Positions 36,043 to 59,306 of a DNA stretch of 64,000 bases are shown here, one piece after another. Under the pieces are notes generated by a model. That model saw only the letters and a program-made list of their open reading frames with translations. It had not been told where the DNA came from and ran no database searches. Position 1 is the stretch's first letter. The number at the start of each line of letters is the position of its first letter. Origin of the DNA: Alphaproteobacteria bacterium (lineage in GTDB: Bacteria; Pseudomonadota; Alphaproteobacteria; MPNO01); the NCBI GenBank assembly GCA_964291675.2, contig OZ219866.1, positions 3,592,461 through 3,656,460 on the forward strand, in the 5' to 3' direction. The position numbers and the translations under genes are program-made.

Positions 36043-36076
36043 TTGGCTCGCGATAACTATTGTTATCAGGAGCCAA
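36043..36076. other. lox-like recombination site A: TTGGCTCGCGATAAC-TATT-GTTATCAGGAGCCAA
   Basis: 15-bp arms with 2 mismatches; arm core identical to the site at 37368. Confidence 0.75.
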
Positions 36077-36360: not shown

Positions 36361-37332
36361 TCACGCACGACGCTGAAGACGCGCGAGCTGCGCCGCCCCG
36401 CTGCGCCGCGCCAGGAGCCGCTCGCCGTAGCGGTGCACCATCGCCGTCGTCTTCCAGCGCCCCGCGTCCAGGATGGCCGGCATCCCGATGCCTTCGGCCA
36501 CCATGTCCTGCGCCGCGCCCACCCGGGTGCTGTGCCCGGAGATGCGCGCGACAACGTCGCCCGGCAGCCCCGCGCGCTCGGCCATCGTCTTGAAGATGCG
36601 CGGCACCTGGCTCGCGTCGAGCCGCTCGCCGAGCGCGCCGCGGTTGAGCGAGCGGAACACCCTCCCCCCGGTCACACCGCTCCGCTCGCACCATGCGCGC
36701 ACCAGCGCCACACTGTCGGGGGCGAGGTACAGGGTTGCGCCGCACCCCTCCGCGTCGGTCTTTGAGCGGCGCACCAGCACCGTCCCCGAGCCGTCCGCAT
36801 CCACCACGATATCAGACACTTGCAGCGCGACGAGCTCGCCCCGGCGCAGCAGCGTGTCGTAGGCGACGGCGAGCAGGGCGCGGTTGCGCGCGTCGATGAG
36901 CGTGTCGCCGGTGGCGCCCATCAGGCGCTCGAGCAGCGCCCAGTTGAGCCCCTCGGCCTGCGCCTGGCGCCGCCCCTTGCGCCGGTGCATGCGCGCGAGC
37001 GCGCGGCGCACCGGCTCGCTTCGCGTCGTCTTCTCGAACCCCACCGCGCGGTGCGCGGCCGCGATGCTCGCCACGTAGCGGCGCACCGTCGCGGGCGCGC
37101 GCTCCTTCGCCATGGCGTCGACGAAGGCCGCGACCGTCTTCGGCGCCGCCGGCAGCGCGGTCAGTCCATGCGCCCCGCACCAGTCCTCGTAGATGGCGAG
37201 GTCCGAGCGCATCGCCCGCTCGGTGTTGTCGGCGAGCGCCCCGCGCGCGGACGCCGCGCAAGCGGTCCGCGGGCTCCGCTCGACGCAGCTTGCGCTCGTC
37301 TGCGCCGGCCGGTTCAGCGGTTCGACAAGCAT
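36361..37332 (-). CDS. Cre-like tyrosine recombinase
   Basis: SAM-like N-terminal domain; catalytic LLRRGE, RSKTD, SGHSTRVG, GRWK and HRY (Trp in place of the second His, as in Cre); GGAGG RBS at 37340-37344. Confidence 0.9.
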   Translation of the reverse strand: MLVEPLNRPAQTSASCVERSPRTACAASARGALADNTERAMRSDLAIYEDWCGAHGLTALPAAPKTVAAFVDAMAKERAPATVRRYVASIAAAHRAVGFEKTTRSEPVRRALARMHRRKGRRQAQAEGLNWALLERLMGATGDTLIDARNRALLAVAYDTLLRRGELVALQVSDIVVDADGSGTVLVRRSKTDAEGCGATLYLAPDSVALVRAWCERSGVTGGRVFRSLNRGALGERLDASQVPRIFKTMAERAGLPGDVVARISGHSTRVGAAQDMVAEGIGMPAILDAGRWKTTAMVHRYGERLLARRSGAAQLARLQRRA

Positions 37333-37367
37333 CGATAAGCCTCCAGGTCCGTGAAACACGGCCCGGA

Positions 37368-37405
37368 GATCGGCTCGCGATAACAATAGTTATCGCGAGC
37401 CGATC
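37368..37405. other. lox-like recombination site C: GATCGGCTCGCGATAAC-AATA-GTTATCGCGAGCCGATC
   Basis: Perfect 17-bp inverted arms just upstream of the recombinase gene. Confidence 0.8.
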
Positions 37406-37690
37406 GACAGCGTCAGGGGGGTGGTCGATGGGCAATCCCGGGGACGGATACGGGTCTTCCTTCCTGCGGTTGGCAGGCAGACCCGGTGCACTCCGCGGCG
37501 GCGTCTCCACAGGCGCGGGTGCGCCGGCGAGGGATGCCGCATGGCGACGTCGAGGGCGTCCATCTCCGGGCATCCATCCGAACCATAGGGCCAGGTCTTT
37601 CCCGGCGCGTCCCCAGTCCTGGGGAGGCGCGCGGGCGCGCGGCTCGGCTGCCGCCTGCGGCTTCGTCGGGGAAATCTTTGTGCGAACGCG

Positions 37691-40600
37691 ATGACGGGGG
37701 GTTCAGTGAGCGTATTCCGGAACGCATTCAATCGCGGCGGTTGCCGGTCGGCGGTCGCGGCGGCATCGGTGAGGTTCGGCTTCGGCGACGGGCCGGTAAC
37801 GGGCGCGGAGGCGCCGGCGGAGGACCGGGCGGCCGCTCCCGAATTCTCCCCGGGCGGGGCCGAGGCGCGCGCGGACCGGCGGGCGCGGAACGCCGGGCCG
37901 GAGTCCGGGGCCGGAGCGGGGCGTCGCCAACGAGGACCGCGCCGGTCGGCCGGGGCATTCGCGGGGCGGGCGAACGCGGGCCGTCGTTCTTCCGACGACG
38001 GGCCGGCCCGCCCGAGGGCGACGCCGGCCGGTGCGCTGGCCACGGCCCGCCGCGCCGGGACGGCCGCGCTGCTGCTGGCCTGTCTCGCGCTGCCGCTCGC
38101 GGCGCTCTTCTCCACGCCGGCCCACGCGCAGACCGAGAAGACGCGGGTCACCAACCACAGCGGGGCCAACGCGACCTCGAACGGCACCGTCGGCGGGCCG
38201 AGCGGGAGCCAGTGGGGCCAAGCGCAGCAGTTCACAACCGGCGCCGGCAGCCACACCCTCGGCTCGGTGGTCGCGCATCTGAGGTCTGTCGGCTCGCAGG
38301 CGGCTGTGAAGGTGAGCATCTACACCTCCACGTCCGGCAACAAGCCCGACACCAGCCTCTACGTGCTGAACAATCCGACGACGATCGCCGCGACGTCGGA
38401 CAACACCTTCACCGCGCCGAACAATGCGACGCTGGCAGCGAACACGAAGTACTTCGTGGTGTTCGAGAACACGGCCATGGGCAGCGGGAGCAGCTACACC
38501 TACAGCGTGCGGCGGACGACCTGGAACTCCGCGACCGCGAATACCGGGTGGAGCATCGCCGACACATCCAGGAGTCGGACCAGTGAGACCGATAACTGGA
38601 CCTCAACCATCAACGATTCCATCAAGATCGCCGTCAAGACGTCCCACAACGCCGCGACGGGCCAGCCGGCGATTTCCGGCACGGCGCAGGTCGGAAACAC
38701 GCTGACGGCCAACAAGGGCACCATCGCGGACTCCGACGGGCTGCCCTCGTTCCCGGGCGGCTTCACCTTCCAGTGGGTGCGCGGCGGCACCAACATCTCG
38801 GGGGCGACGTCGCGCGAATACACGCTGACGGACGACGACCAGGGCAACACCCTCAAGGTGAGGGTCTCCTTTACCGACAATGAGGGGTTTTCCGAGGGAC
38901 CGCTCGAGAGCGTCGCGACGTCGTCGGTCGCGGCGATGCCGGCGAACGGCTGCACGCCGGACGACCTGCGGCTCGTCGGCGGCGACAACGACCGCGAGGG
39001 CGAGGTGGAGATCTGCCACAACAACCAGTGGCGGAACGTGTGCGACGACGATTGGGAGAAGGTGGACGCCAACGTCGCGTGCAAGCAGCTCGGCTACACC
39101 CAGGGCGCCCGGCGGGCCACGATACTCTCCGAGTTCACTACTTTGATCTCCGTCCAATTCTGGCTTGACGATGTCGCGTGCACCGGCAGCGAGACGAAGC
39201 TGGCGGAGTGCGAGCATGCGGGCTGGGGCGTGAACAACTGCACCCACGCCGAACGGGCCGGCGTGGTCTGCAAGGCGAATGCCAACGTCGCCGCCACGGG
39301 CCAGCCGGCGATATCCGGCACGGCCGTCACCGGCGAGGACCTGACGGCGTCGACCGACGGGATCTCGGACGACAACGGCAACACCAAGGCGGAGGACGGC
39401 GATACCGGCTTCGCCTACACCTACCAGTGGTTCCGGGTCGATTCCGACGGCACCTCGAACAAGACCCAGATCACGGGCGAGACGGCATCGACCTACACCC
39501 TGGTCGCGGCCGACGTGGGCAAGAAGGTCATCGTGGAGGTGAGCTTCACCGACGACGAGAGCAACGCCGAGGGGCCGCTCGCGAGCGACGCCTATCCCGC
39601 CGGGACCGGCACGGTCGAGTCGGCCGACTCGACGCCGCCGGAGGTGGACTCGGCGACGGTGGACGGCACGTCGCTGGCGATCACCTTCAACGAGGACCTC
39701 GCCGCCGCGGCCAACCTCGCGAACGATGCCTTCGAGGTGAAGCGGACGCCGCCGGGCGAGGCCGAGGAGACGGTGACGCTCACCGGCTCGCCGGCGATCA
39801 GCGGCATGACCGTGACGCTGACGCTGGATGCCGCGGTGATTGCGGGCGACGCGGTGACGGTGGGCTACACCAAGCCGACCTCGGGCACCGACAACGTGCT
39901 CGAGGACGCGGCGGGCAACGAGGTGGCGGATTTCACGGAGACGGTCACGAACGACACCGAGGTCGTCAACAACCCCGCGACGGGTGTGGCCATCGACGGC
40001 CCGGCGCAGGTGGGCATGACGCTGACGGCGGACACCTCCGGCATCGAGGACGCCGACGGTCTGACCGGCGCGACGTTCGAATACCAGTGGTTCAGCGGCG
40101 GCACCGAAATCCCGGGCGAGACCGGGTCCACCTACACGGTGCGGCCCGCGGACGTCCTCAAGCGGATCAAGCTGCGGGTGACGTTCAAGGACGACGCCGG
40201 CAACGACGAGGCGCCGGAGAGCCCCGCCATAGCGCCGGCCGTGCCGGCGGCGGCCGACCACTGCGACTCCCTGACCGTCTGGTGCGCCACGCTGACCGCG
40301 GGTGCAGACGATGCAATTCTTGACGACGCTGGCAGACTACTAGACGCTGACGAAACGGGTTACCTGCGCGCTACGCGTTCCGGGCGTGGCAGGGCGCCTG
40401 CGGTTCCGCGGCGCATCCGGCGAAGACTCTTGGCGGACGTCATCGAACCATTCGAGGAGCAGAAGGCAGAACGTGGCGAGTCTGACTGGAACGATGTCGC
40501 TATCGAAGCCGCAGCTACGCATAGCCATGGCTACGATGTGGTCGTGGTCGATGAAGCCCAGGACCTCTCAGCAAACCAAGTAAGAACCATCCTCGCGCAC

Positions 40601-41290
40601 TTGAGGGAAGACCACTCGACGACCTTCATCATGGATGCCGTGCAGCGAATCTACCCGCAGGGCTTCCAATGGAGAGAAGTGGGCATCGATATGCGTCCGC
40701 AAATGGTGTTCGCCCTAACTCGCAACCATCGCAATACAGGGGAGATCGCCAGGTTTGCGGCGTCATTAGTACGGGACCTCCCGCTAGAGGAGGATGGTTT
40801 GGTGCCTGACGCAAACGCGTGCGAGCGTTCGGGTCCACTTCCTCGTGTGGTGGTAGGAAGATACGCTGCTCAGGTCAACTACATGCTGAACGAGGTTCAA
40901 GAAGCTATAGAATCCGAGGAAACGATCGCTATCCTCCACCCCAAGGGGTGGTTCGATTACGCAAGGGGGACGCTTGACCGACGCGGCATCGACTACTGTG
41001 AGCTGACACGACAGCGCGAATGGCCGACCGGGCCGGAGCTGGTCGCGTTGTCAACGTTTCATTCCGCAAAAGGTCTCGAATTCGATCATGTGCTTATGCC
41101 TGGCCTAAATCAGGAGGTCACCCCTCATGGTGACGAAGACGGAGACGGCACGCTCGACTCTCTTCGCCGCTTGGTGGCTATGGGTATCGGGCGCGCCAGA
41201 CGCTCCGTCATGGTCGGTTGCAAACCTGGAGAAGAATCGACGTTGATTGAGATGTTTGATCCCGAAACCTACGAACTCGTTCGGGTTTGA
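37691..41290 (+). CDS. Chimeric ORF: secreted Ig-like/SRCR/SwmB-like adhesin (to ~40310) fused in frame to the C-terminal part of a UvrD-like SF1 helicase
   Basis: Signal peptide ...PAHAQ; SRCR LRLVGG...VCDDDW...CTGSE; codon/GC shift at ~40305-40365; then VDEAQD, RNHRN and STFHSAKGLEFD with no Walker A. Confidence 0.8.
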   Translation: MTGGSVSVFRNAFNRGGCRSAVAAASVRFGFGDGPVTGAEAPAEDRAAAPEFSPGGAEARADRRARNAGPESGAGAGRRQRGPRRSAGAFAGRANAGRRSSDDGPARPRATPAGALATARRAGTAALLLACLALPLAALFSTPAHAQTEKTRVTNHSGANATSNGTVGGPSGSQWGQAQQFTTGAGSHTLGSVVAHLRSVGSQAAVKVSIYTSTSGNKPDTSLYVLNNPTTIAATSDNTFTAPNNATLAANTKYFVVFENTAMGSGSSYTYSVRRTTWNSATANTGWSIADTSRSRTSETDNWTSTINDSIKIAVKTSHNAATGQPAISGTAQVGNTLTANKGTIADSDGLPSFPGGFTFQWVRGGTNISGATSREYTLTDDDQGNTLKVRVSFTDNEGFSEGPLESVATSSVAAMPANGCTPDDLRLVGGDNDREGEVEICHNNQWRNVCDDDWEKVDANVACKQLGYTQGARRATILSEFTTLISVQFWLDDVACTGSETKLAECEHAGWGVNNCTHAERAGVVCKANANVAATGQPAISGTAVTGEDLTASTDGISDDNGNTKAEDGDTGFAYTYQWFRVDSDGTSNKTQITGETASTYTLVAADVGKKVIVEVSFTDDESNAEGPLASDAYPAGTGTVESADSTPPEVDSATVDGTSLAITFNEDLAAAANLANDAFEVKRTPPGEAEETVTLTGSPAISGMTVTLTLDAAVIAGDAVTVGYTKPTSGTDNVLEDAAGNEVADFTETVTNDTEVVNNPATGVAIDGPAQVGMTLTADTSGIEDADGLTGATFEYQWFSGGTEIPGETGSTYTVRPADVLKRIKLRVTFKDDAGNDEAPESPAIAPAVPAAADHCDSLTVWCATLTAGADDAILDDAGRLLDADETGYLRATRSGRGRAPAVPRRIRRRLLADVIEPFEEQKAERGESDWNDVAIEAAATHSHGYDVVVVDEAQDLSANQVRTILAHLREDHSTTFIMDAVQRIYPQGFQWREVGIDMRPQMVFALTRNHRNTGEIARFAASLVRDLPLEEDGLVPDANACERSGPLPRVVVGRYAAQVNYMLNEVQEAIESEETIAILHPKGWFDYARGTLDRRGIDYCELTRQREWPTGPELVALSTFHSAKGLEFDHVLMPGLNQEVTPHGDEDGDGTLDSLRRLVAMGIGRARRSVMVGCKPGEESTLIEMFDPETYELVRV

Positions 41291-41295
41291 TCCCC

Positions 41296-41988
41296 ATGTC
41301 GAGGGACAACTTCATTCCGGCTCGTCCAAGAAGATCGGACGAAATCGAACTTCTGCCGACATGTCCGGAAGTCCTCGCGGCGGCGGAAGAGCGGGAAGTG
41401 CGGAACGTGATGCATTTCACAACGATGACCGGCGCGGTCGGGGTTTTGGCCGCTGGCGCCGTCAAGAGTCGAGAGCGGCTACCCGAAGACAAGTATCTTG
41501 AATACGTCTATCAACCGAACGCAGCATACCGCAAGGACACTGCCTGGCTGGACTATGTGAATCTCTCCGTGGAGCGCATCAACGCCTGGATGTTCGATGC
41601 ATCTCAGCGTTGGCATGCGGCCGAGGGAAATCCTTGGGTTTTGCTGTCGTTTTGCCCGGAGATATTGGCGCATCCGGGGGTGGTGTTTACGACGACAAAC
41701 AACATTTATCCAGCGTGTACTCGCGCCGAAGGCTTACCGGGATTCGAGCGGATGTTCGCAGAGACGGTTGTTGGTCGTTACAACAGCGTTCATGGCCGTG
41801 ATGGAAAGCATTCCGCATGGCCCACCGACCGACAGGCGGAAGTTCTGTATCCAGGCGAGCTGTCGTGCGAGTATCTGCAACGGATTGATGCCCAAACAGA
41901 AGATGCTGCTGACGGGATTCATGGCATGTTGAGTGGTCTCCAATTGGATGAGATTACCGTTCGTCATGCACCGGAGGCGTTCGAATGA
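41296..41988 (+). CDS. darT: DarT-family (DUF4433) DNA ADP-ribosyltransferase, DarT1-like
   Basis: MHFTT, DYVNLS and PTDRQAEVL (catalytic Glu); alternative TTG start at 41287 overlaps the helicase stop. Confidence 0.8.
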   Translation: MSRDNFIPARPRRSDEIELLPTCPEVLAAAEEREVRNVMHFTTMTGAVGVLAAGAVKSRERLPEDKYLEYVYQPNAAYRKDTAWLDYVNLSVERINAWMFDASQRWHAAEGNPWVLLSFCPEILAHPGVVFTTTNNIYPACTRAEGLPGFERMFAETVVGRYNSVHGRDGKHSAWPTDRQAEVLYPGELSCEYLQRIDAQTEDAADGIHGMLSGLQLDEITVRHAPEAFE

Positions 41989-43721
41989 CTGTTTCGGAAT
42001 CGCTTCGTGGGGCTCCGCCACCGGATACCGGGGAGGTTCCACAGCCTAGCAATGTGGCTTCAACTCAGTTTGCAGCGCGTGCCGCGATGACCCACCGTTC
42101 CGCTCTGTGGGCGGCTTACGGGGACGCATTGGGCTGGATCAGTGAACTGACCGATTCGAGAGGACTGAAGCGAAGGACGGGAGGTGAGCCGCTTTGCCGT
42201 CCCATCGCATGGAATAGGAGGATCGGTGGGCGGGGGGGAATCACCGTAACGTTGCCGGTGGGTTGCTACTCAGATGATTCCCAGTTGCGTCTCGCCACCG
42301 GCCGGGCGATTGGGCCTAGTGGTTTCGATGTTGAAGCGTTCGCAAAGGTCGAACTCCCAGTCTGGCTAAGCTATGGGCTCGGGGGAGGCAAATCTACGAG
42401 CGCTGCTGCGGGGAACCTGTCTAGACAGACAGTCCCTTGGTTCGCCAACACGTTCAAGGGATGGAGTAACTCCGGCGGAAACGGCGCGGCGATGCGCATC
42501 CAACCCCACGTCTGGGCGAGCTCGGATTTGGACGACGCTCGCACGTACCTGCCCGACGTTGTGCGCAACTCGATCTGTAGCCATTCCCATCCCATCGGAT
42601 TGCTCGGGTCGGTGGTTCATGCACTGACGCTCGCACAAACCATGTCCACCGGCCATCAACCATCGGTCAGTGACGTAATGGAGGCTGTCAAGAAAGCGGC
42701 TGAACTCCCCGAGTTGATGAGGAGCGATACCGAGGTAGGAAGCTATTGGCGCGGAGCTTTTGAACGGGAGTCAGGAAGTTTCGATGACGCATGGAGGCGT
42801 GCAATCGAAGAATGCAGGGAAGCGGTGTCAGTTGCTGGAGCAAGCCCTTCGAATGCGAATGGAGCTGAACGCTATGGCGCTTTGATCCAGGGCCTTAGAC
42901 TTCGCGAGCCAGCGCGGAGAGGCAGCGGAATGCTGACTGCAGTCGCGGCGGTCGGTTTGTTGTGGTGCGAAGCTGAACCGGAAAAGGCCATGCGTATCGC
43001 AGCAAACGAACTAGGGACAGATACTGATACGATTGCGTCGATGGCCGGCGCGATCGCCGGTGCGGTCGCTGAAGCCGAGCCGCAAGTGCAGGTGCTGGAT
43101 GCGGAGCTATTCCGTTCTGAGGCTAATCGGTTGGTAAGGGTTGCCTTTGGCGAACGTCCGGTTGGCCATCGTTATCCCGATCTGCTGCGCTGGTCGGCGC
43201 CGTCCAGACGCGCCGATACTTTGGTGCGCACGAAAGACGAGGGTCTCTACGTTCGGGGTCTAGGCCTCGCTAAAACTGCGAGCGATCCGATAACGTCGCC
43301 GAGTGGCGATTTCCAATGGCAGTGGTTGACGCTTGAATCTGGTCAGACCTTGCTAATCAAGCGCAGGGCTGACCTGATGCTCATCGAAGATGAAATTGAG
43401 ACATCGCCGGCGCAACGGTCTCTGCATCCGATGCCGCCCAGGGTCGATGCCGGCCAGGAGCCATCTGCGGTGGAGCGTCGAGCAACCGATTCGGATTGTC
43501 CGGTGGAAGCGCCTCCCGAGGAAGCAAGGGATGCTACCTCAAGAACTGAGTCGTCCTTGGATCTGCAGGTCGCGCTCCACTATATCGAGGAGCACAAGGA
43601 TGATGACAGAGCTGTCGGGGCCGCCTTGCGGCGCGTCGTCAACAAGGGGACTCCAGGCCAAATTGCAGCATTCACCTCCGCCTTGATCGATCATCTGGGA
43701 AAGACTGAGAGGAGGAGGTGA
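41985..43721 (+). CDS. ADP-ribosylglycohydrolase (ARH/DraG family) with C-terminal extension
   Basis: AYGDALG, YSDDSQL, GNGAAMR, SHSHP and GTDTDTIASMAGAIAGA; ATGA overlap with darT. Confidence 0.88.
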   Translation: MTVSESLRGAPPPDTGEVPQPSNVASTQFAARAAMTHRSALWAAYGDALGWISELTDSRGLKRRTGGEPLCRPIAWNRRIGGRGGITVTLPVGCYSDDSQLRLATGRAIGPSGFDVEAFAKVELPVWLSYGLGGGKSTSAAAGNLSRQTVPWFANTFKGWSNSGGNGAAMRIQPHVWASSDLDDARTYLPDVVRNSICSHSHPIGLLGSVVHALTLAQTMSTGHQPSVSDVMEAVKKAAELPELMRSDTEVGSYWRGAFERESGSFDDAWRRAIEECREAVSVAGASPSNANGAERYGALIQGLRLREPARRGSGMLTAVAAVGLLWCEAEPEKAMRIAANELGTDTDTIASMAGAIAGAVAEAEPQVQVLDAELFRSEANRLVRVAFGERPVGHRYPDLLRWSAPSRRADTLVRTKDEGLYVRGLGLAKTASDPITSPSGDFQWQWLTLESGQTLLIKRRADLMLIEDEIETSPAQRSLHPMPPRVDAGQEPSAVERRATDSDCPVEAPPEEARDATSRTESSLDLQVALHYIEEHKDDDRAVGAALRRVVNKGTPGQIAAFTSALIDHLGKTERRR

Positions 43722-44035
43722 TGCGGCGGCCGAAGCATCGAGTATGGGCTAGTGGTTATAGCGCCCGAGCGGGGATCTTTGCTGGTCGCGGGTCCTCGGG
43801 CGACTGCGCGAACGCATCGGTGAGTGCGTCCGCGCCGCGGGACTGCTCTTGCTCGCAGAGAGTCCCTGGCTTTCTTGGTTTCCCTTCGCGTTCTTGACTT
43901 GCCCTACCCGCACCCGAAGTCGCACCGTTACCGTTCGGCTGGGGCGCTTGCGCAGGTGCGGCTGTTCGCGGAGATCGTGCGCGATATCGCGCCCTTCAAC
44001 AAGAAAACATTCATACTTACTATTGACCTTCGAAC

Positions 44036-45355
44036 ATGACCGTCAAAGGCGACGACACAAATACAATGACAAAACAGAAACAAGACTTTTTGGCTGAACA
44101 ACAAGAACGATATGAATGGTTGCGTCGTGTCACTGACGAAGCAATTGCTGCGCGCACGAAGGAGGTAGAATTCCACGGCCTAGAGGAAGAGTTGCGGAAT
44201 TTACAGAAAGCAATTCTGGATAGTTACAATCACACAAAACCAATAAAACATCCTCGCGACAAAGGCGATCATCGCGAAGAGATATTGAGACATTTTCTCA
44301 CCAAACACGGCCTCCTGCCCAACAGTGTCAGTATACCATCTGTCAGCACACGAGTAGTTTCCCCATCAGGCCACATCAGTCCGGAGCTTGATATTCTTTT
44401 TGTCAACGCGAACGATTCAATAGTTCTTAAGAGATATGAAAACACGCTTGAATACTATCCCGTAGAATCTGTGCTTGGTACGATACAAGTGAAGTCGAAA
44501 CTAACGAAAAAGGAGTTGGCATCTGGGCTAAAGCATATACAGGCTTTCAAGAACATAAGACCAATCCGCTCGCTAAGGCGTCAAATGGGCGGCTTCACAA
44601 TGGAGGCAGGTCTCTACCGGAGGTTTGGCATTCTATTCGCATACGAGCGTGCCTTACGGTGGGAGAAAATGGTTGAGGTCATTCGTGAGCATTTAGCTGA
44701 GTGCCCAAACAGCCTTTGGCCAAACATGATAGTGATTCTGGACGCGGGTTATTTTCTTATTGGTGACAAGTCGCGTTATGCGTGGAATCAGAGAACTCTT
44801 GAGGACATATCAAATCCAGAAATTCATGGTTCTCCGGACTATTCTGGGCACTGTCTACAGCAATTCTATTCTTATCTGATTGCTCTCGTGAAGGAAGCAA
44901 ATAGTGGTTGGCCGGATACGAACGATTACTTGCGTATGCCGATTGCTGTGGGGGAACACTCTCTCGAATTTGCGCATGGCGGGTTTTCTGAATTCGCCAA
45001 ATGTCCTCAACATGGAAACTACTTGAAAAAGATTAAGGTGGAGAATATCAAGATAATACTAGATAAGACCAAAAATAGTGAACCAATTAATTGGATTAAG
45101 GCGTTGGACCTGGCAGCGGGCAAACCCGGCACGGACTCTGAACGTTATGCGAAACAACCTGGCGACGTTATTGTGTATGATCCGGATAGTCTTGGTCTAG
45201 AGAATGTATTGTTGAGCGCGGAGGGGTTCATTACGCACGAACAGGTTATCATTGACGGCCGTCAATACTGGCTTCCTTGGCACTACGTTGTTGCTCACGA
45301 GCTTATTGATCCGTGTCCGCAGTGCCGAGATGGTGCGAAAGATGCGAAGTCATAG
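44036..45355 (+). CDS. NucC-like (DUF6602) endonuclease domain protein with C-terminal extension
   Basis: HPRDKGDHRE...SPELDILF...YPVESVLGTIQVKSKL; low GC; CPQH and CPQC pairs; start may be 44066. Confidence 0.7.
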   Translation: MTVKGDDTNTMTKQKQDFLAEQQERYEWLRRVTDEAIAARTKEVEFHGLEEELRNLQKAILDSYNHTKPIKHPRDKGDHREEILRHFLTKHGLLPNSVSIPSVSTRVVSPSGHISPELDILFVNANDSIVLKRYENTLEYYPVESVLGTIQVKSKLTKKELASGLKHIQAFKNIRPIRSLRRQMGGFTMEAGLYRRFGILFAYERALRWEKMVEVIREHLAECPNSLWPNMIVILDAGYFLIGDKSRYAWNQRTLEDISNPEIHGSPDYSGHCLQQFYSYLIALVKEANSGWPDTNDYLRMPIAVGEHSLEFAHGGFSEFAKCPQHGNYLKKIKVENIKIILDKTKNSEPINWIKALDLAAGKPGTDSERYAKQPGDVIVYDPDSLGLENVLLSAEGFITHEQVIIDGRQYWLPWHYVVAHELIDPCPQCRDGAKDAKS

Positions 45356-45532: not shown

Positions 45533-46735
45533 TCACATGGCGGCGGCAACCTCTGGCGGCGTGTCCATGTCGGCTTCGAGACTGTCGGAAATCCGAACGG
45601 CAGCGACCTTGACCGAGTGCTGGCCAAGGTGTGCATAGCGCGCGGTCGTCTGCACCTTAGTGTGACCGAGCAGCTTCCCGATCATCGGGAGACCCTCCCC
45701 GAGGGCGAGCAATCGCGAGGCGAAGCTGTGACGCAAATCATGCAGGCGGACGTCTTCGAGCCCCGCCTCCCTGCGGACGAGCTGCCACGACGCGTTCAGC
45801 GTCCGCAGGCGGGAGCCGCGCACGCGGCCGGGAAACACCCACGGGTTGTCGGGCCGGCGCGGCAGCGCGATCAGGACCTGCTTCGCCGCGGGCGAGAGCG
45901 GCACGGCCCGCGCCCCGGTCTTCGCATCCCGGAGCCGCAACTCGTCGTGTTCGAGGTCGACATGCTCCCATTTCAGGGTCACGATCTCGTTGCGTCGGCA
46001 GCCGGTCAGCATCAGCAGGCGCAGCGCCCCGGCGGCGCTCGTTGAGACCGTGCCCGCGGCTTCGAGCTCGGCGAGCACGCGGCCCAACCGGTCGAACTCC
46101 TGCTCCGACAGGAAGCGCTCGCGCCCGCGCGTGGGGTATTTCTGGATGAACCGGCAGGGATTGCCGCCGGCCGGCGCCGCGCCCGACTTGGCGGCGGTGT
46201 AGAACAGTCGGGAAAGCAGCGAGACCGCCTGGTTCGCCATGGTCGGCGTCGCGCGCATCCGGTAGTGTAGCGCCGCAATATGGTCGGGCGTGACCTCGCT
46301 CAGGCGCAGGGCCCCGAACTTCGGCAGCAGGAACCTGTCCAGGATGTAGCGGCATCCCCGCTGCGTCGTCGGCTTGCAGCGCACGGCGACATGTTCGGTC
46401 ATGTAGCGCTCGGCCATCTCGGCGATCGTCGGCCCGTTGGCCGAGGGGGAATCGGCGCCCGGGCGGCTCGGCGTCTCGCCCGCCTTCAGGCTGGCAAGCA
46501 GCCGTCCCGCCTCGCGCCGCGCCCGCTCGGGCGTCCACACTCCGTGGCGGCCGATGGTGACGCGGCGTGTTTTCCCCCGGGCGCGGGTCTGCACCATGTA
46601 GACCTTCGAGCCCGAGGGATGGACGCGCACCCCGAAGCCGGTGAGGTCGCGGTCCCAGAACAGGGCTTCGCGCTCGGCGACCGGCAGGGCGTCCACCGCG
46701 CGCCGGGAAAGGACGAGCTTGTTCGGGCTTGGCAT
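45533..46735 (-). CDS. Tyrosine integrase with arm-binding (DUF4102-type) domain
   Basis: WDRDLTGFGVRV; TGCRRNE, DAKTG, HDLRH, LLGH and TARY. Confidence 0.92.
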   Translation of the reverse strand: MPSPNKLVLSRRAVDALPVAEREALFWDRDLTGFGVRVHPSGSKVYMVQTRARGKTRRVTIGRHGVWTPERARREAGRLLASLKAGETPSRPGADSPSANGPTIAEMAERYMTEHVAVRCKPTTQRGCRYILDRFLLPKFGALRLSEVTPDHIAALHYRMRATPTMANQAVSLLSRLFYTAAKSGAAPAGGNPCRFIQKYPTRGRERFLSEQEFDRLGRVLAELEAAGTVSTSAAGALRLLMLTGCRRNEIVTLKWEHVDLEHDELRLRDAKTGARAVPLSPAAKQVLIALPRRPDNPWVFPGRVRGSRLRTLNASWQLVRREAGLEDVRLHDLRHSFASRLLALGEGLPMIGKLLGHTKVQTTARYAHLGQHSVKVAAVRISDSLEADMDTPPEVAAAM

Positions 46736-46755
46736 GGCGGTCTCCCGTGAGAAGT

Positions 46756-47436
46756 TCATTTGACGCCGACGTGCTGGGAGCCGTCCGGCGGCACGAGCCT
46801 GGGGCCGAGGTCGTCGCCGATGTTGGCCGTGGCATGGCGCACCGAGTCGCGGGCGAGATGCGCGTACCGCGCGGTCGTGGTCACCATGCGATGACCGAGC
46901 AGGTCGCCAATCATCGGCAGCCCCTCGCCGAGCGCGAGCGCCCGGGAGGCGAACGTATGTCGCAAGTCATGCAGGCGGACGTCTTCGAGCCCGGCCTCCT
47001 TGCGCACGCGGTCCCACGAGTCGTTGAGGTTGACCAGCCGGGTGCCCTTCTTCTTGCCCGGGAACACCCACGGATTGCCGGGCGTGCGGGCGAGGCCATC
47101 GAACACTCTCGCGGCGGCGGGGGTGAGCGGGACCATGCGGGTACCAGTCTTCGTGTCGGGGAGCCGCATTTCGCCGGTGTGGAAGTTGAGGTCGTCCCAC
47201 CGAAGCCCGAGGATTTCGTTACGGCGGCACCCGGTCAGCACCAGGAGCCGGATGGCCGCCGCCGCGTGGGTGGAGGCGAGCCGCTTTCCCGGGGCCGCCC
47301 GCAGCGTCTCGCCGAGCCGGAAGAGCTCCTCGCGGGTCAGGAACCGCTCGTGCTTCTCGACCCGGAAGCGGGGCACGCTCCGGGCCGGGTTGCTGCCGGA
47401 GGGCCGCCAGCCCCAAGCGTCCGCCAGGTTGAACAT
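46756..47436 (-). pseudogene. 5'-truncated tyrosine integrase (catalytic half only), paralogue of the adjacent integrase
   Basis: TGCRRNE, DTKTG, HDLRH and TARY present; frame closed just upstream, so no arm-binding domain. Confidence 0.8.
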
Positions 47437-47590
47437 CTTCGTAAGACCTATTATCGGGGCATGGCCGCAAGTGCCTGCGCTTGTCTATGCGTTACTTTTC
47501 TTGCGTGTTTAGAATGCTCTAGGGAGATCAGGCCTTGCCTGCCCGTATCTGCGCAGGGCTTCCAGTGATCGCCGGGTGTTGGCGAATGTG

Positions 47591-47620
47591 TTGACATATG
47601 GGTGGCCATTCCGCCACAAT
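47591..47620 (+). promoter_or_regulatory. Sigma70-like promoter TTGACA-N18-CACAAT, probably leaderless
   Basis: Perfect -35; the -10 ends 6 nt before ATG 47627; no RBS. Confidence 0.55.
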
Positions 47621-47626
47621 CCCCCC

Positions 47627-48910
47627 ATGACCGGAAAACGCGTCGCTCGCCACAAGCTCACCCTCACCAAGCGCGCCGTCGAGGCCATGAAGCCCGCCGA
47701 CAGGCCCTGGATCGCATGGGACGTCAAGGTCACCGGATTCGGCGTCCAGGTCCAGCCCACCGGCACCAAGTCCTTCCTGGTCAACTACCGCACCGACGGC
47801 GGCGGCAGGAAGGCCCCCAACAAGCGCGTCGTCATCGGCAGGTTCGACAGGATGTCGGTCGATGACGCACGCAAGATGGCCTACCAGATGCTGGGCAGGG
47901 CCGCGGGCGGGGACGATCCTGCGGTCGAGCGCGCCGTGGCGCGCGGCATGCCCCTGCTTGAGGAGGCCTTCGAGGACTACATGGCGGTCAATCCCAAGCG
48001 GGCCGCCAGCTCCAACCGGATGTACCGCGCCGAGTTCGACAACATGCTGGGCGACTGGCGCAGGCGCCCGCTCGACAGCATCACCCGGCGCGACGTGGAG
48101 GAGCGGTTCAACCGGCTCAGCCGGGATCACGGCTGGGCGCCTGCCAACCGGGCGATCGCGCAGTTGCGCTCGGTCTACCGCCGTCCCTGCGTCGATCTGG
48201 AGGGCTTGCGCAACCCGGTCGATCTCTGGCTCGCCGGCGGGGGCGAGTACCACACGCCCAGGCGGCGCAAGATCTCCACCCCGGCGGACGTGCTGCCGCG
48301 CTGGCGGGCCGGGATCGAGGCGGTGGTGGTCACGCCCGGGGCGCGGGACGCCTTCCACTTCGGGCTCTACACCGGCATGCGCATTCAGGAGGTGCTGCCG
48401 CTGCGCTGGGAGCGCGTGGACATGGCGGGCCTCTTCTTCCGGGTCGAGGAAACCAAGACGGGGGAGCCTCTGGAGCTGCCCGTCACCCGCCAGCTCGCCG
48501 CCATCCTGGAGCGCCGCCGCTCGGAGTGCGACGGCCTGGAAGGCGGTCTCCGGGACTGGATCTTCCCTTCCGCCCTGAGCGGCTCGGGGCATATCGCCAG
48601 TCTGAGCCATCTCTACGCGCGGATCGGCAAGGCCGCCGGCACGAAGTTCTGGTATCACGGCCTGCGCAACTGCTTCATCACCGTGGCCGAGCGCGACCTG
48701 CTGCTGCCCAGGGCCCTGACCAAGCGTCTGGTCAACCACGCCCGGCCGGCGGACGTCACCGAGGGCTACGCCGCCGACTGGACCATCGAGCAGCTTCGCG
48801 GCCCGGCGCAACTCATCGCCGACAGGATCGAGCTGCTGATGAACGGGGGCGAGGTCTCGCCGGCTGACAGTGGTGACGACCGAGCGGCGCACGCGGCGGC
48901 AGCGAAATGA
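47627..48910 (+). CDS. Tyrosine integrase with arm-binding domain (copy 1)
   Basis: WDVKVTGFGVQV; TGMR, ETKTG, HGLR, LVNH and TEGY. Confidence 0.92.
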   Translation: MTGKRVARHKLTLTKRAVEAMKPADRPWIAWDVKVTGFGVQVQPTGTKSFLVNYRTDGGGRKAPNKRVVIGRFDRMSVDDARKMAYQMLGRAAGGDDPAVERAVARGMPLLEEAFEDYMAVNPKRAASSNRMYRAEFDNMLGDWRRRPLDSITRRDVEERFNRLSRDHGWAPANRAIAQLRSVYRRPCVDLEGLRNPVDLWLAGGGEYHTPRRRKISTPADVLPRWRAGIEAVVVTPGARDAFHFGLYTGMRIQEVLPLRWERVDMAGLFFRVEETKTGEPLELPVTRQLAAILERRRSECDGLEGGLRDWIFPSALSGSGHIASLSHLYARIGKAAGTKFWYHGLRNCFITVAERDLLLPRALTKRLVNHARPADVTEGYAADWTIEQLRGPAQLIADRIELLMNGGEVSPADSGDDRAAHAAAAK

Positions 48911-50142
48911 CCGACCCCTCCGGCAAGCGGGTCGCGCGGACCAGGCTGACCCTGAACCGGCGCAGCGTGAAGGCGCTGAAGCCCGCCGACAAATCCTGGA
49001 TCGCCTGGGACGACAGGCTGACCGGCTTCGGCGTCCGGGTGCAGCCCACCGGCCTCAAGTCCTTCATCGTCAACTACCGCGCAGGCGACGGCGGGCGGAA
49101 GGCGCCCAACCGGCGCGTCGTGCTCGGCCGCCACGGCGCGATATCGGTGGCTCACGCCAGGCGCGAGGCGCGCGAGCTGTTGAACAAGGCGGCCCGCGGC
49201 GAGGACCCGGCGGGAGCACGTTCCGAGGCGCGCCGCATGCCGACGCTGGAGCAGGCCTTCACGGATTTCATGGACGCCAACACCAAGCGGGCGGCGGGGA
49301 CCGACAGGCTCTACCGCGAGGAGTTCGCCCGCCACTTCTCCGAGTGGCACGAGCGTCCGCTCGACACCATCTCGCGGCGCGACGTGGAGGCCCACTTCAA
49401 CCGGCTCACCGAGGACAGCGGCTGGTCTCCGGCCAACCGGGCGATCTCGCTGCTGCGCTCGATCTACCGCCGCCCCTGCGTCGATCTCGACGGCCTGCGC
49501 AACCCGGTCGATCTGTGGCTTGCGGGCGGCGGCAAGTACCACCGCCAACGGCGGCGCAAGATCTCCACCCCGGCGGAGGTGCTGCCGCGCTGGAAGAAGG
49601 GGATCGTGGAGACGGTGAGCACGCCGTGCGTGCGCGACGCCTTCTGGTTCGGCTTCTACACCGGCATGCGCCTGAGGGAGGTGCTGCCGTTGTGCTGGGA
49701 CCGAGTGGAGAAGACGAACATGGTCTTCCGGGTCGAGGAGACCAAGACGGGCGCACCTCTGGAGCTGCCGATCACCCGGCAGCTTGCCGCGATCCTGCAA
49801 CGCCGATTGGCAGACAGCGGGGCGTCATCGGACGATGACGACGACTGGGTGTTTCCGTCCGCCCTGCCTGGCGCCGTGGGCCACATCGCGGACCTGTCGC
49901 ACCACTACAAATGCATCGGCGAGGCGGGCGGGGCGCGGTTCTGGTACCACGGCCTGCGCAACTGCTTCATCACCGTCGCTGAGCGCGACCTGCTGCTGCC
50001 CCATGCGCTGACCAAGCGGCTGGTGAACCACGCGCCCGCTAGCGACATCACCGAGGGCTACGCGGCCGACTGGACCATCGAGCAGCTCCGCGAGCCGGCG
50101 CAGAGGATCGCGGACCGCATCGAGGAATTGATGAACTCCTGA
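48907..50142 (+). CDS. Tyrosine integrase (copy 2, tandem paralogue)
   Basis: Same motifs, long stretches identical to copy 1; ATGA overlap. Confidence 0.92.
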   Translation: MTDPSGKRVARTRLTLNRRSVKALKPADKSWIAWDDRLTGFGVRVQPTGLKSFIVNYRAGDGGRKAPNRRVVLGRHGAISVAHARREARELLNKAARGEDPAGARSEARRMPTLEQAFTDFMDANTKRAAGTDRLYREEFARHFSEWHERPLDTISRRDVEAHFNRLTEDSGWSPANRAISLLRSIYRRPCVDLDGLRNPVDLWLAGGGKYHRQRRRKISTPAEVLPRWKKGIVETVSTPCVRDAFWFGFYTGMRLREVLPLCWDRVEKTNMVFRVEETKTGAPLELPITRQLAAILQRRLADSGASSDDDDDWVFPSALPGAVGHIADLSHHYKCIGEAGGARFWYHGLRNCFITVAERDLLLPHALTKRLVNHAPASDITEGYAADWTIEQLREPAQRIADRIEELMNS

Positions 50143-56949: not shown

Positions 56950-59004
56950 CTACACCTCATTGTGCCGATCGACGGGGGGCTGTCGTTGCGACAGCAACCG
57001 GCCCGGTTGTTTCGTTGGCGGAGGGTCGGGGATCTCGAACAAGCGGCGACCCTTGTCGCCGTATGTATCCGCGCGCAGAAGTCCAGCCTTGTGCCATGCG
57101 TGGACCGTATCTTCCGACACGGCGAGACGCTCGCCGGCCTCGCGAGCCGTCAACAGCCCGCGGTCCCGCAGGCGTTCATAACGTGACTTGAGACCGCGGT
57201 GATGGCGGGTTGCCTTTACCAAGTTCTGAGTAAAGGCAAGACCGTGTGCGGTTCGGCAGCCGCGCCTGTTGAGGATGTCCGCGACCTCGCCTTCGGTGTG
57301 ATCGTTCAACAGCCTGTCGATCTCGGCGACGATCTCGTCCTTGGTCCTGAAGCGCTCATAGATGGGTGGGTCCGGCGTCCAGGTCAGCTCTCGTATCGCG
57401 CCGCCGCGCAGACGCACCCCCAGGCTCCGGGTGGCCTTGGTGAGCGTCACGTCGTCGATCAGCAGCCGCGCCAGCCGCTTGCGCTCACGGTGCGGCGTCG
57501 CCGGATCGTTCCACAGGCGGGGGAAGTCGCTGGCCAGCGCGAGGATCCGCTGGCGTTGCCCGTCGTCCACCCCCTGGCCCGGCTCGGCGCGGTTGCGCTC
57601 GAGCTCGTGCTGAGCTTCGTTCAGCGCCCGGAGCTTCGCGTTCCACTCCGCCTCCAGCACGTCGGCGACCATGCGGTTGTCGGGATGGGTCTGCATGAAC
57701 CTCTGCCGCGCCAGGTTCGCTTCCTCGCGGGCGCGCTGCACCCGCTGGGTGCGCCACAGATCGGCCTCATCGGCGCGCGCCGTGAGTTCGTCCTGCACCT
57801 GCAACGCCACCTCCAGCGTGAGCGGTGTCACCAACTCCACCAGCAGCTCGCCGACCGCCCGGTCGATAGCGGCGCCGGACATGTTCTGGCACCTGGCGCT
57901 TGCCGTCTCGATGCCTTCGCGACTGCACTCATAATGAGGGAACCGCAGCCCTTTACGGGTGTAGTAGTGCACCGTCATGCTCCGGCCGCAAACGCCGCAG
58001 GTGGCCAGACCCTGCAGCAGCGCCGGTCCCTCGCGCGGAGGGCTGCGGCGCTTCGCTTCGTAGGATCGGGCATTGTCCCGGAGCTGACGTTCGTTCTCCT
58101 CGAACCGCCGCCAGTCGATGTAGCCCGGGTGCGCGTCGCGCAGCAGCACCGTCCATTCCTCGCGCGCCAGGCGCCTGTGCTCGACACCGCCGCCGGGCCG
58201 CCGGCGGCGTCGGGTGCGCCCGTACGCGAAGGCGCCCGCGTATCGCGGATTGTGAAGTACCTGGAGCACCCGCGAGAACTTCAGGGGCTTCCAGTGCAGC
58301 TCGCCCTTGTGCGATCCGCCGGGAGGACGATGCGGGAACAGAAGCTTCTCGCTGTTGAAGTGCTTTACCGTGGCCTGCGCCGAGCCGGTCCGCGTGAAGG
58401 TGTCGAACAGCAGGCGCAGGCTGTGCTGCACTTGTTCGTCGGGGTCGAGCACCACGTCGCCGAGCGGATCGTAGACCAGCCCCACCGGCAGCGGGATCTT
58501 CAGCTCCCCGCGCCTGGCCGCATTCAGAGTCCCCCCGCGCAGCCGGGCACGCATCATGTGCAGTTCCGCCTCGCTCATGGTCCCTTTCAGTCCCAGGAGG
58601 AGCCGGTCGTTGAACTCGCCGGGGTCGTAGACGCCGTCCTCGTCGAGGATCAGCGTCTCGCTCAGGGCGCATATCTCGAGCAGCCGATGCCAGTCGGTGG
58701 AGTTGCGCGCGAGCCGACTGACCTCGAGCCCGAGCACGATCCCGGCCCGTCCCAAGCCGACCTCGGCGACCAGGTGCTGGAACCCCTCGCGGTCGCTGTC
58801 GGCGCCGGAGAGGCCCTGATCGCTGTCGATCACGACGATGTTCTCGGTCGGCCAGCCCAGCGCCACGGCCCGATCCCGCAGCGCGTACTGGCGGCGCGTG
58901 CTCTCGCCATGGTCGAACACCTGCTGCAGGCTGGACTGGCGCACATACAGGTAGGCATCGCGGCTCAGATGGCCCGTATCCACCTTCTGATGGGCAGTGC
59001 TCAT
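56950..59004 (-). CDS. Large serine recombinase (resolvase + recombinase + Zn ribbon, C-terminal HTH)
   Basis: YLYVRQSS, DQGLSG, EVSRLARN, NPRYAG and LQGLATCGVCG. Confidence 0.92.
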   Translation of the reverse strand: MSTAHQKVDTGHLSRDAYLYVRQSSLQQVFDHGESTRRQYALRDRAVALGWPTENIVVIDSDQGLSGADSDREGFQHLVAEVGLGRAGIVLGLEVSRLARNSTDWHRLLEICALSETLILDEDGVYDPGEFNDRLLLGLKGTMSEAELHMMRARLRGGTLNAARRGELKIPLPVGLVYDPLGDVVLDPDEQVQHSLRLLFDTFTRTGSAQATVKHFNSEKLLFPHRPPGGSHKGELHWKPLKFSRVLQVLHNPRYAGAFAYGRTRRRRRPGGGVEHRRLAREEWTVLLRDAHPGYIDWRRFEENERQLRDNARSYEAKRRSPPREGPALLQGLATCGVCGRSMTVHYYTRKGLRFPHYECSREGIETASARCQNMSGAAIDRAVGELLVELVTPLTLEVALQVQDELTARADEADLWRTQRVQRAREEANLARQRFMQTHPDNRMVADVLEAEWNAKLRALNEAQHELERNRAEPGQGVDDGQRQRILALASDFPRLWNDPATPHRERKRLARLLIDDVTLTKATRSLGVRLRGGAIRELTWTPDPPIYERFRTKDEIVAEIDRLLNDHTEGEVADILNRRGCRTAHGLAFTQNLVKATRHHRGLKSRYERLRDRGLLTAREAGERLAVSEDTVHAWHKAGLLRADTYGDKGRRLFEIPDPPPTKQPGRLLSQRQPPVDRHNEV

Positions 59005-59306
59005 GCCGACTTCCCTTCTCCATGGCCGTTGAGCATGGCGACCAAAATGTCGATCGCCGACGTCTCGACCCCTGTGGGCAACGGCCCGGGCGACGCCCCC
59101 GCGCACACGGCGGGCGGCGGGGCGGGCAGCTCGGCGAAGGCGTGCAGCCAGGCCGCGACGCCGCGCAGCGCCACCACGGCGCTTCCGTGGCGGTCGTGGA
59201 CGGCGCCGGGCTCGACGGCATGACGGCGCATCCGTTCGTACCCATGTCCGTAGGCCGAAGGCTCCGCCGCCGGGAGCGCGGCGCAGGGCGGGCTGTGCAT
59301 CGTCAT
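59001..59306 (-). CDS. Small hypothetical protein of the element
   Basis: ATGA overlaps with both neighbours; YERMRRHAV...LRGVAAW. Confidence 0.65.
   Translation of the reverse strand: MTMHSPPCAALPAAEPSAYGHGYERMRRHAVEPGAVHDRHGSAVVALRGVAAWLHAFAELPAPPPAVCAGASPGPLPTGVETSAIDILVAMLNGHGEGKSA

Follow-up and report, generated by a model that had tools for sequence, protein, structure and literature searches.

Does the window, the 64,000-nucleotide stretch of alphaproteobacterial DNA analysed here, hold a third type of DarTG system, and what can a copy whose helicase is truncated still do? The preliminary description had proposed such a type, made of a UvrD-like helicase, a DarT ADP-ribosyltransferase and an ARH-like hydrolase, encoded in that order. 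We found that a DarT paired with an ARH protein and accompanied by a helicase is indeed conserved as a family. The claim of novelty did not stand: the system has been catalogued as DarHTG (helicase DarH, DarT and ARH-like antitoxin DarG3; Nucleic Acids Research, April 2026, PMC13069673, consulted in part). For the copy in the window, we put a probability of roughly three in four on its being a degraded locus of the DarHTG anti-phage family that was gained horizontally, is most likely dead in defence and retains its toxin-antitoxin pair.

Layout of the locus and the truncated helicase

Profile searches recovered all three coupled genes (UvrD_C, E 2.2e-9; DarT domain PF14487, E 2e-24; PF03747 across residues 43-361 of DarG3, E 2e-31), as described previously, and the frames are open across 3.4 kb with 0 stops or frameshifts. 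The darT and darG3 genes share an ATGA overlap at 41985-41988, which had also been noted. darT could also begin at 41287, with a TTG that overlaps the stop codon of the helicase. The helicase remnant is the last part of a chimeric ORF, following in frame a high-GC surface-protein part with SRCR (E 2.4e-26), SWM_repeat (E 5.7e-13) and Ig-like domains; G+C steps from 0.68 to 0.56 near 40500, inside this ORF.

Features of the locus, in coordinates of the window
Feature	Position	Strand	Size	Basis
Chimeric ORF, continuous	37691..41290	+	1199 aa	ORF list, Pfam, GC step
Junction of high-GC native-like DNA and acquired DarHTG module	40300..40360			Homology starts, contig spanning
darH remnant, C-terminal part of a UvrD-like helicase of ~467 aa	40331..41290	+	~320 residues	Homology to L002
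darT, DarT-family ADP-ribosyltransferase (toxin)	41296..41988	+	230 aa from ATG	PF14487
darG3, ARH-fold ADP-ribosylglycohydrolase (antitoxin)	41985..43721	+	578 aa	PF03747, AlphaFold, Foldseek

The helicase part of the window matched only residues 204-524 of the 524-aa ORF of an intact relative (L002), at 83% identity. Other helicase relatives align with L002 from residue ~57 on. Motif II (DEAQD) and the UvrD_C domain remain in the window copy, and ~147 N-terminal residues are missing, among them Walker A (GSGKT, residues 88-92 of L002), in agreement with the missing N-terminus of the preliminary description. The UvrD N-terminal domain matched over profile positions 165-253 of 271 only, below the cut-off. 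A second copy of the missing part, with Walker A, was sought in the genome and not found. Intact helicase relatives are ~465-470 aa long, a size that fits a missing subdomain (cf. the 2B domain) by length only. Both the remnant and the intact L002 helicase matched the GajB and NERD+UvrD models of PADLOC with modest E values (1e-12 to 1e-17).

Protein homology to the intact helicase starts at nucleotides 40328-40331 instead of at 40310, where the locus had been taken to begin, and the DNA alignment to L002 and L003 is clear from ~40362. The N-terminus was lost when the locus underwent a deletion or rearrangement, which joined the remnant in frame with the surface-protein gene. The remnant runs for 957 nt without a stop codon and has a dN/dS of 0.16 against L002, equal to the value for darT. 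As it bears no signs of decay, either little time has passed since the event or the remnant still has a use.

The DarT toxin and the DarG3 antitoxin

The HFT, NLS and PTDRQAEVL motifs, which had been picked out in the translation of darT, fall in invariant columns of an alignment of 17 relatives, and the window DarT keeps all such columns. It matched the DarT model of PADLOC (4.1e-6) and no NCBIfam model. When a DarT profile was searched against the PDB, the sole match was E. coli C7 DarT1 (8baq, E 1.1e-7), with no DarT2 chain even at E <= 10. A tree of 35 DarTs placed the ARH-linked and NADAR-linked proteins on one side of a supported split (96/91) and the macro-linked proteins on the other. 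In the phylum sample, NADAR partners (PF22397) were present at L103, L104 and L105 only, and 17 of 21 other DarT loci had Macro partners. By profile and tree, the window DarT groups with the DarT1 type, which is linked to NADAR, and not with the macro-linked DarT2, which bears out the DarT1 likeness first read from its motifs.

An AlphaFold model of DarG3 (pLDDT 83.8) allowed us to draw a domain map: residues ~23-390 form the ARH domain and 410-465 a small beta domain, after which come a disordered linker (472-522) and a bundle of three helices (527-573). Foldseek matched the model to MJ1187, ARH3, Lmo0067 and DraG (E 4e-8 to 2e-6), with a probability of 1.00 for MJ1187, ARH3 and DraG; the NCBIfam search gave DraG alone, at a sub-threshold score. 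Across 26 orthologues, D47, S96-D97-D98 and D346-T347-D348 do not vary, and the acidic residues (D47, D97, D98, D346 and D348) are intact, as had been described. As in ARH3 and DraG, the conserved acidic and Thr residues are taken to be metal ligands, and the DTDT segment of DarG3 aligns with ARH3 chains.

The tail past the ARH domain measures ~210 aa, close to the ~200 aa estimated before. It was modelled separately (pLDDT 79.3) and compared with 48,161 PDB representatives, which gave generic three-helix-bundle matches only (residues 126-187 of the model, best Z 7.2), the beta domain being barely probed by this comparison. A complex prediction for DarG3 and DarT returned no answer (score 0.00) and speaks neither for nor against pairing. 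For the darT-darG3 pair, dN/dS against close relatives was 0.15-0.24. Both proteins are full-length, keep every family-invariant residue and are under purifying selection.

Conservation of the triad and origin of the locus

We found 103 DarT relatives in genome contigs and examined the best 80 of them. An ARH gene lay directly downstream of darT in 80/80 of these best relatives and a helicase gene directly upstream in 79/80, which upheld the expectation of a conserved UvrD-DarT-ARH triad and suggests that the helicase is not optional. In 51 of the 80 loci, the darT stop and an in-frame ARH start shared 4 nt. Homologues of the triad are spread over many phyla, E. coli included, where 21 of 5426 complete genomes carry it, annotated as '3'-5' exonuclease | DarT family | ADP-ribosylglycohydrolase family'. 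Judging from gene neighbourhoods, the proposed third DarTG type does exist as a three-gene system, one that is widespread and tightly conserved.

Decay was seen among the relatives in 7/78 helicase, 2/80 DarT and 3/80 ARH genes. A preference for helicase loss over loss of the other two genes was considered and dropped: the counts are too small and depend on length, and some frame changes may be assembly errors. The DUF6602 nuclease gene at 44036-45355 was likewise rejected as a fourth component, with homologues in 0/80 related loci.

Several features point to a foreign origin of the locus. Its G+C (0.54-0.62 at 40500-43999) is below that of both flanks (0.66-0.76 at 37500-40499; 0.67-0.71 after 45500), as had been noted for the three genes. 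A search of the 19 other genomes from the same family yielded no DarT, and the neighbourhood is a defence island rich in recombinases. A tRNA scan of 28000-56000 found none, hence no tRNA integration site in that interval. Scans for promoters and terminators over 37300-44100 gave nothing exceeding the shuffled expectation, and among the sequencing runs listed as containing 39300-41700 none was of RNA.

Fate of the system and comparison with known systems

In an intact system, DarG3 would restrain DarT by hydrolysing the ADP-ribose that DarT places on its target. This target is probably ssDNA, possibly guanine, as DarT1 is the type nearest to the window DarT. Phage infection would act through the helicase ATPase, which would either free DarT or let it reach ssDNA. 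In E. coli, mutation of the ATP-binding residues of the helicase abolished DarHTG defence (PMC13069673, in the part available), and since the window copy has lost Walker A altogether, its defence has most likely been lost. The darT-darG3 genes probably persist as a live, self-stabilising toxin-antitoxin pair, in which the ATGA overlap would couple translation of the two genes. That defence requires the helicase ATPase is documented in that source for the E. coli homologue only; relatives of this homologue share 36-44% identity with the window proteins.

An unlikely alternative is that the locus still defends its host, with DarT and DarG3 working as a DarTG-like module of two genes; the helicase would then be dispensable in this lineage, or its function supplied by the remnant or in trans by another UvrD-like helicase of the island. 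The intact DarT and DarG3 under purifying selection, the open frame of the remnant with its low dN/dS and a 1720-aa DEAD+UvrD helicase encoded 7 kb downstream of the locus are all consistent with this, as is the fact that canonical DarTG1 and DarTG2 function without a helicase (PMC13069673, in part). However, a helicase kept beside darT in all but one of the best 80 of 103 relatives, the loss of defence in the E. coli ATP-binding mutants (same partial source) and the missing Walker A speak against it. Less probable again is that the whole module is inert and in the course of being lost, with DarT silent or inactive and the open frames reflecting no more than a recent truncation. The helicase gene has lost its native start together with the upstream stretch in which a promoter would sit, a search for sigma-70-like promoters on the + strand of 37300-44100 gave none (a weak test) and decay does occur among the relatives; yet no frame is broken over 3.4 kb and all invariant residues are kept, and the ORF that begins at 37691 could provide read-through transcription from the surface-protein gene.

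The sharp change of G+C at the junction also raised the suspicion of an assembly chimera, in which a surface-protein gene was joined to the intact DarHTG locus of another organism, and the genome is a two-contig assembly with an estimated contamination of 6.67%. This we regard as barely credible. The junction is real. It is spanned over 40300-40360, without a single difference, by independent Logan contigs from two runs that belong to different studies, namely X1 (39523-41700), which may come from the source sample, and X2 (39965-41700), which is listed under another study. The degraded DarHTG locus with a persisting toxin-antitoxin pair stays the preferred reading.

DarHTG received its name and its validation in April 2026, so no new kind of system comes with the window. 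What the window contributes is a natural case of a disabled helicase beside an intact toxin and antitoxin, the grouping of ARH-linked DarTs with the DarT1 type and the domain map of DarG3. The more interesting question concerns the family and not the window copy, namely the target of DarT and whether an ARH-fold enzyme removes ADP-ribose from a DNA base. The accessible part of PMC13069673 gives neither a DNA (guanine) substrate nor reversal by the ARH protein. We offer only tentatively, with the odds somewhat against it, the proposal that DarT of the window clade, whose nearest counterpart is the guanine-specific DarT1, attaches ADP-ribose to a DNA base, that DarG3 would be the first ARH-fold enzyme shown to cleave nucleobase-linked ADP-ribose and that the DarT-DarG3 pair outlives the helicase as an autonomous addiction module. 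If so, helicase-less remnants such as this one would show the pair surviving the loss of its sensor or motor.

Among known systems, GajB and other defence UvrD-like helicases resemble DarH by PADLOC, but the window has no GajA partner and DarH is short (~467 aa). The DarTG2 systems of Thermus, Mycobacterium and EPEC follow the same logic of an ADP-ribosylating toxin followed by a reversing hydrolase; their antitoxin is a macrodomain DarG, whereas the window proteins have no Macro match. DarTG1 supplies the nearest solved toxin, the E. coli C7 DarT1 found in the PDB search, but its antitoxin is NADAR, while that of the window has an ARH fold (PF03747, no NADAR match) and the window operon includes a helicase gene.

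Systems of the Lmo0067 and DraT-DraG types modify proteins. In both Listeria Lmo0067 (PDB 8za7) and DraT-DraG, an ARH-fold hydrolase undoes the modification made by a neighbouring ADP-ribosyltransferase, and both Lmo0067 and DraG rank with the strongest matches to DarG3 in sequence and in fold. In contrast, the window transferase belongs to the DarT family, a family that acts on DNA, and DarG3 carries its extra C-terminal part of ~210 aa.

The closest counterpart is DarHTG of E. coli (Liu-DS3), which protects against T4, T7, T5 and SSL_2009a; DarH is UvrD-like and without a 2B domain, DarG3 resembles ADP-ribosylglycohydrolases and a DarG3 mutant could not be constructed (PMC13069673, as far as the available part goes). 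The strings 'DarT3' and 'DarG3' in PMC10760071 are superscript reference numbers and not system names. Homology to the published system was judged via the sole triad of the same architecture found in E. coli, to which the window proteins are clearly homologous. A Kluyvera triad near-identical to the E. coli one matched the window proteins at E 3.7e-87 (helicase part), 1.7e-44 (DarT) and 1.7e-103 (ARH), though the 36-44% identity to the enterobacterial type, measured via L075, is low. DarHTG of E. coli thus has the same gene order and domain content as the window locus, so far as PMC13069673 could be consulted, but its helicase has the ATP-binding residues that defence needs, whereas the helicase of the window is without Walker A and fused to an unrelated ORF.

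Architecture and surroundings of the locus

We found profile matches for all three genes that the preliminary description had read as a UvrD C-terminal half, a DarT-like ADP-ribosyltransferase and an ADP-ribosylglycohydrolase (ARH) hydrolase; they are called darH, darT and darG3 here. The last third of a chimeric ORF matched UvrD_C (Pfam, E 2.2e-9), and the UvrD N-terminal domain gave a match below the cut-off, confined to positions 165-253 of the 271-position profile. The ART matched DarT (PF14487, E 2e-24), and the third ORF matched ADP_ribosyl_GH (PF03747, E 2e-31, residues 43-361). Five nt lie between the helicase stop and the darT ATG, and the end of darT shares ATGA with the start of the ARH gene, the overlap noted earlier. 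The genes are also lower in G+C as described (0.54-0.62 in 40500-43999, versus 0.66-0.76 immediately upstream and 0.67-0.71 beyond 45500). The helicase part itself was retained, with its start corrected from 40310 to ~40328-40331.

Features of the locus and its surroundings (window positions; DarG3 parts in residues)
Feature	Position	Strand	Details
PD-T7-5 homologue, full-length	32283-33305	-	PADLOC E 2.7e-99; another lower-GC stretch
Tyrosine recombinase gene	36361..37386	-	
Chimeric ORF	37691..41290	+	1199 aa, uninterrupted
darT ORF	41287/41296..41988	+	233 or 230 aa
ARH (darG3) ORF	41985..43721	+	578 aa
DUF6602 / PD-(D/E)XK NucC-like nuclease	44036-45355	+	Pfam 6.7e-21; PADLOC PD_DExK 2.1e-22
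Tyrosine recombinase gene	45533..46759	-	
Tyrosine recombinase gene, shortened copy	46756..47436	-	
P4-type integrase gene	47576..48910		
P4-type integrase gene	48907..50142		
DpdF/PsyrT-like DEAD-box + complete UvrD-type helicase fusion	50583-55745	+	1720 aa; PADLOC E 1.8e-112, Pfam 3e-38
Large serine recombinase gene	56950..59106		
DarG3 ARH domain	residues ~23-390		AlphaFold model
DarG3 small beta domain	residues 410-465		AlphaFold model; conserved YPDLL-x-W and GQT-x-L-x-KRR motifs
DarG3 linker, disordered and variable	residues 472-522		AlphaFold model
DarG3 three-helix bundle	residues 527-573		AlphaFold model

The module lies in a mosaic island. A search of the family's 19 other genomes found no DarT like that of the window. 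This absence, the island and the lower G+C together point to horizontal acquisition. The nuclease gene has very low G+C (0.43-0.48). It was ruled out as part of the unit because none of 80 related loci had a counterpart, and is probably a separate defence gene. A 30-35-nt palindromic element in two copies (36040-36074, 37372-37406) closely brackets the first tyrosine recombinase gene, with which it may form a small recombinase-borne mobile unit. The four integrase genes in 45533-50142 form two tandem pairs, 76-81% identical in DNA and spaced by 1229-1289 nt.

Conservation of the triad and truncation of its helicase

Among 3636 candidates, 1001 proteins were related to the window DarT at E <= 1e-3; among these, the 120 listed matches all carried PF14487, at 62-100% identity. 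Species-representative genomes held 103 loci with a DarT relative, and in the best 80 of these we identified neighbours by tblastn with the window proteins. The neighbourhood survey proposed earlier showed the triad to be conserved: an ARH gene lay directly downstream of darT in 80/80 loci and a UvrD-like helicase gene directly upstream in 79/80. In the sole exception, L030, no more than the last 37 helicase residues remain. The darT stop overlapped an in-frame ARH start by 4 nt in 51 of the 80. As labelled in the genome records, the loci span Pseudomonadota, Actinomycetota, Acidobacteriota, Chloroflexota, Planctomycetota, Thermodesulfobacteriota and others.

Several individual loci were distinctive. 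DarT of L030 (L030:3708-5666) is fused to an unrelated ~430-aa N-terminal region in place of the helicase, and the Syntrophorhabdus antitoxin (L044:5643-8888; 1081 aa) carries a C-terminal SIR2_2 domain. The closest intact triad (L002:208-8826) separates rpoC from rpsL-rpsG, and the 10.7 kb examined there contains no integrase. DarTs 58-69% identical to that of the window (L004-L035) came from genomes labelled Dehalococcoidia, Binatia, Acidobacteriota, Bryobacterales, Spirochaetia and Gammaproteobacteria and formed one supported clade (99/94), which suggests recent cross-phylum transfer.

The helicase N-terminus was missing, as first described: the remnant aligned only to L002 residues 204-524 (83% identity). 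It retains motif II (DEAQD) and lacks the Walker A GSGKT (L002 residues 88-92). The L002 ORF has 524 aa, of which other relatives align from residue ~57, so that the intact length is ~467 aa. We did not find the missing part in the window or the rest of the 4.8-Mb genome, where the sole other match was a 28%-identical paralogue. Upstream of the breakpoint, the same frame is high in G+C and codes for a surface protein bearing SRCR, SWM_repeat and Ig-like domains. The SRCR match in 37691-40330 (+) is strong (PF00530, E 2.4e-26), this domain being typically eukaryotic, and the genome has several paralogues that share these repeats.

Such a junction could be an assembly chimera. This is very unlikely, since Logan contigs from two runs of different studies crossed it with 0 differences (X1, 39523-41700; X2, 39965-41700); X1 may be the source sample. 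Two further runs, X3 (labelled sponge metagenome) and X4, gave contigs with about 2-8% differences over 40529-41700. A genuine truncation could in turn be read simply as a dead helicase. The main point against this is the dN/dS of the remnant versus L002 (0.16; darT and darG3 versus close relatives, 0.15-0.24). No relaxation left by the truncation was detectable; either it is recent or the remnant is not neutral. Elsewhere, the helicase was damaged in 7 of 78 evaluable loci (80 minus two lying at the ends of contigs): a DDE transposase gene splits it in L001, frame changes affect L003, L017, L028, L036 and L043, some of which may be assembly errors, and the gene is lost in L030. Damage to DarT (2/80) and ARH (3/80) was also seen; we claim no bias toward the helicase as the counts are too small.

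Toxin and antitoxin

The window DarT keeps every position invariant in 17 relatives, including H40-F41-T42, N89-L90-S91 and the W-P-T-x-R-Q-A-E segment. Its sole solved relative by sequence was E. coli C7 DarT1 (E 3.1e-4 with a single sequence, 1.1e-7 with a profile), and no DarT2 chain among solved structures matched even at E <= 10. PF14487 was present in 21 of 401 sampled Pseudomonadota genomes, the window genome counted. We scanned 56 of 86 flanking ORFs; those set aside were peripheral ones and the ORFs of two loci, L101 (the window genome's own) and L107 (it overlaps L093). Partners at the 21 other DarT loci were a macrodomain (17) or a DarT1-type NADAR (PF22397; 3), with one contig-edge locus (L095) unassigned; none had an ARH partner.

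In a maximum-likelihood tree of 35 DarTs, the 20 ARH-linked proteins formed one group (90/96). These and the NADAR-linked DarTs lay on one side and the 12 macro-linked DarTs on the other (96/91, with a long-branch warning for L105 and L102). The window DarT is thus nearer to DarT1 than to macro-linked DarTs by tree split and solved match, and "DarT1-like", as its motifs were first read, is a fair label. This likeness does not in itself imply guanine specificity, which is an inference.

Positions invariant in 26 DarG3 orthologues include D47, S96-D97-D98, the GGNG loop (164-167), H175, H200, H212 and D346-T347-D348. The AlphaFold model (pLDDT 83.8) has four parts, bearing out the ARH hydrolase with a ~200-aa tail described earlier. 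Its best Foldseek matches (E 4e-8 to 2e-6) were MJ1187, ARH3, Lmo0067, DraG and ARH1; Lmo0067 is a Listeria ART-ARH immunity protein.

Relation to the DarHTG system

DarT would ADP-ribosylate nucleic acid, probably ssDNA, and DarG3 would take the mark off in uninfected cells. The helicase may couple infection to DarT action: it could make or follow ssDNA, or it could detect phage replication. Because its ATP-binding site is gone, the window copy should be defence-dead; the toxin-antitoxin pair would stay, since a cell that lost only darG3 would die. What DarT modifies, and whether base-linked ADP-ribose can be reversed by an ARH-fold enzyme, are questions for the whole family, to which an intact homologue is better suited than this copy.

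The proposal of a third DarTG type was essentially right as biology; the system is not new. In the available parts of the paper (Nucleic Acids Res, 8 April 2026, PMC13069673), Liu-DS3, named DarHTG, comprises a UvrD-like helicase lacking a 2B domain (DarH), DarT as toxin and, as antitoxin, DarG3, which resembles archaeal and eukaryotic ADP-ribosylglycohydrolases, unlike the two known DarG types. Defence by this homologue is described there as abortive-infection-like, acting against T7, T4, T5 and SSL_2009a and requiring toxin activity and helicase ATPase. The hydrolase was indispensable, and a DarG3 mutant could not be constructed. DarHTG is given as commonest in Thermodesulfobacteriota and Bacteroidota. 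The accessible text of a 2022 survey (PMC9503650) gives only Macro/NADAR as DarT partners, and our full-text literature search found no second paper on the helicase-DarT-ARH architecture. The suggested PADLOC check returned no model matching the ARH protein of the window or of the enterobacterial triad (PADLOC-DB v2.0.0, 2023).

The window proteins matched those of a Kluyvera triad (L075) at E 1.7e-44 to 1.7e-103. Its DNA is 93.8% identical to a triad carried by 21 of 5426 complete E. coli genomes in an integrase/IS island and annotated as '3'-5' exonuclease', 'DarT ... family protein' and 'ADP-ribosylglycohydrolase family protein'. The link to the E. coli system runs through this L075-like triad and the paper's description. 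The Foldseek matches of the window DarG3 agree with the antitoxin as described in the available text of PMC13069673. Architecture, conservation, intact toxin and antitoxin and truncated helicase are established here, and the locus is a damaged member of the published, validated DarHTG family.
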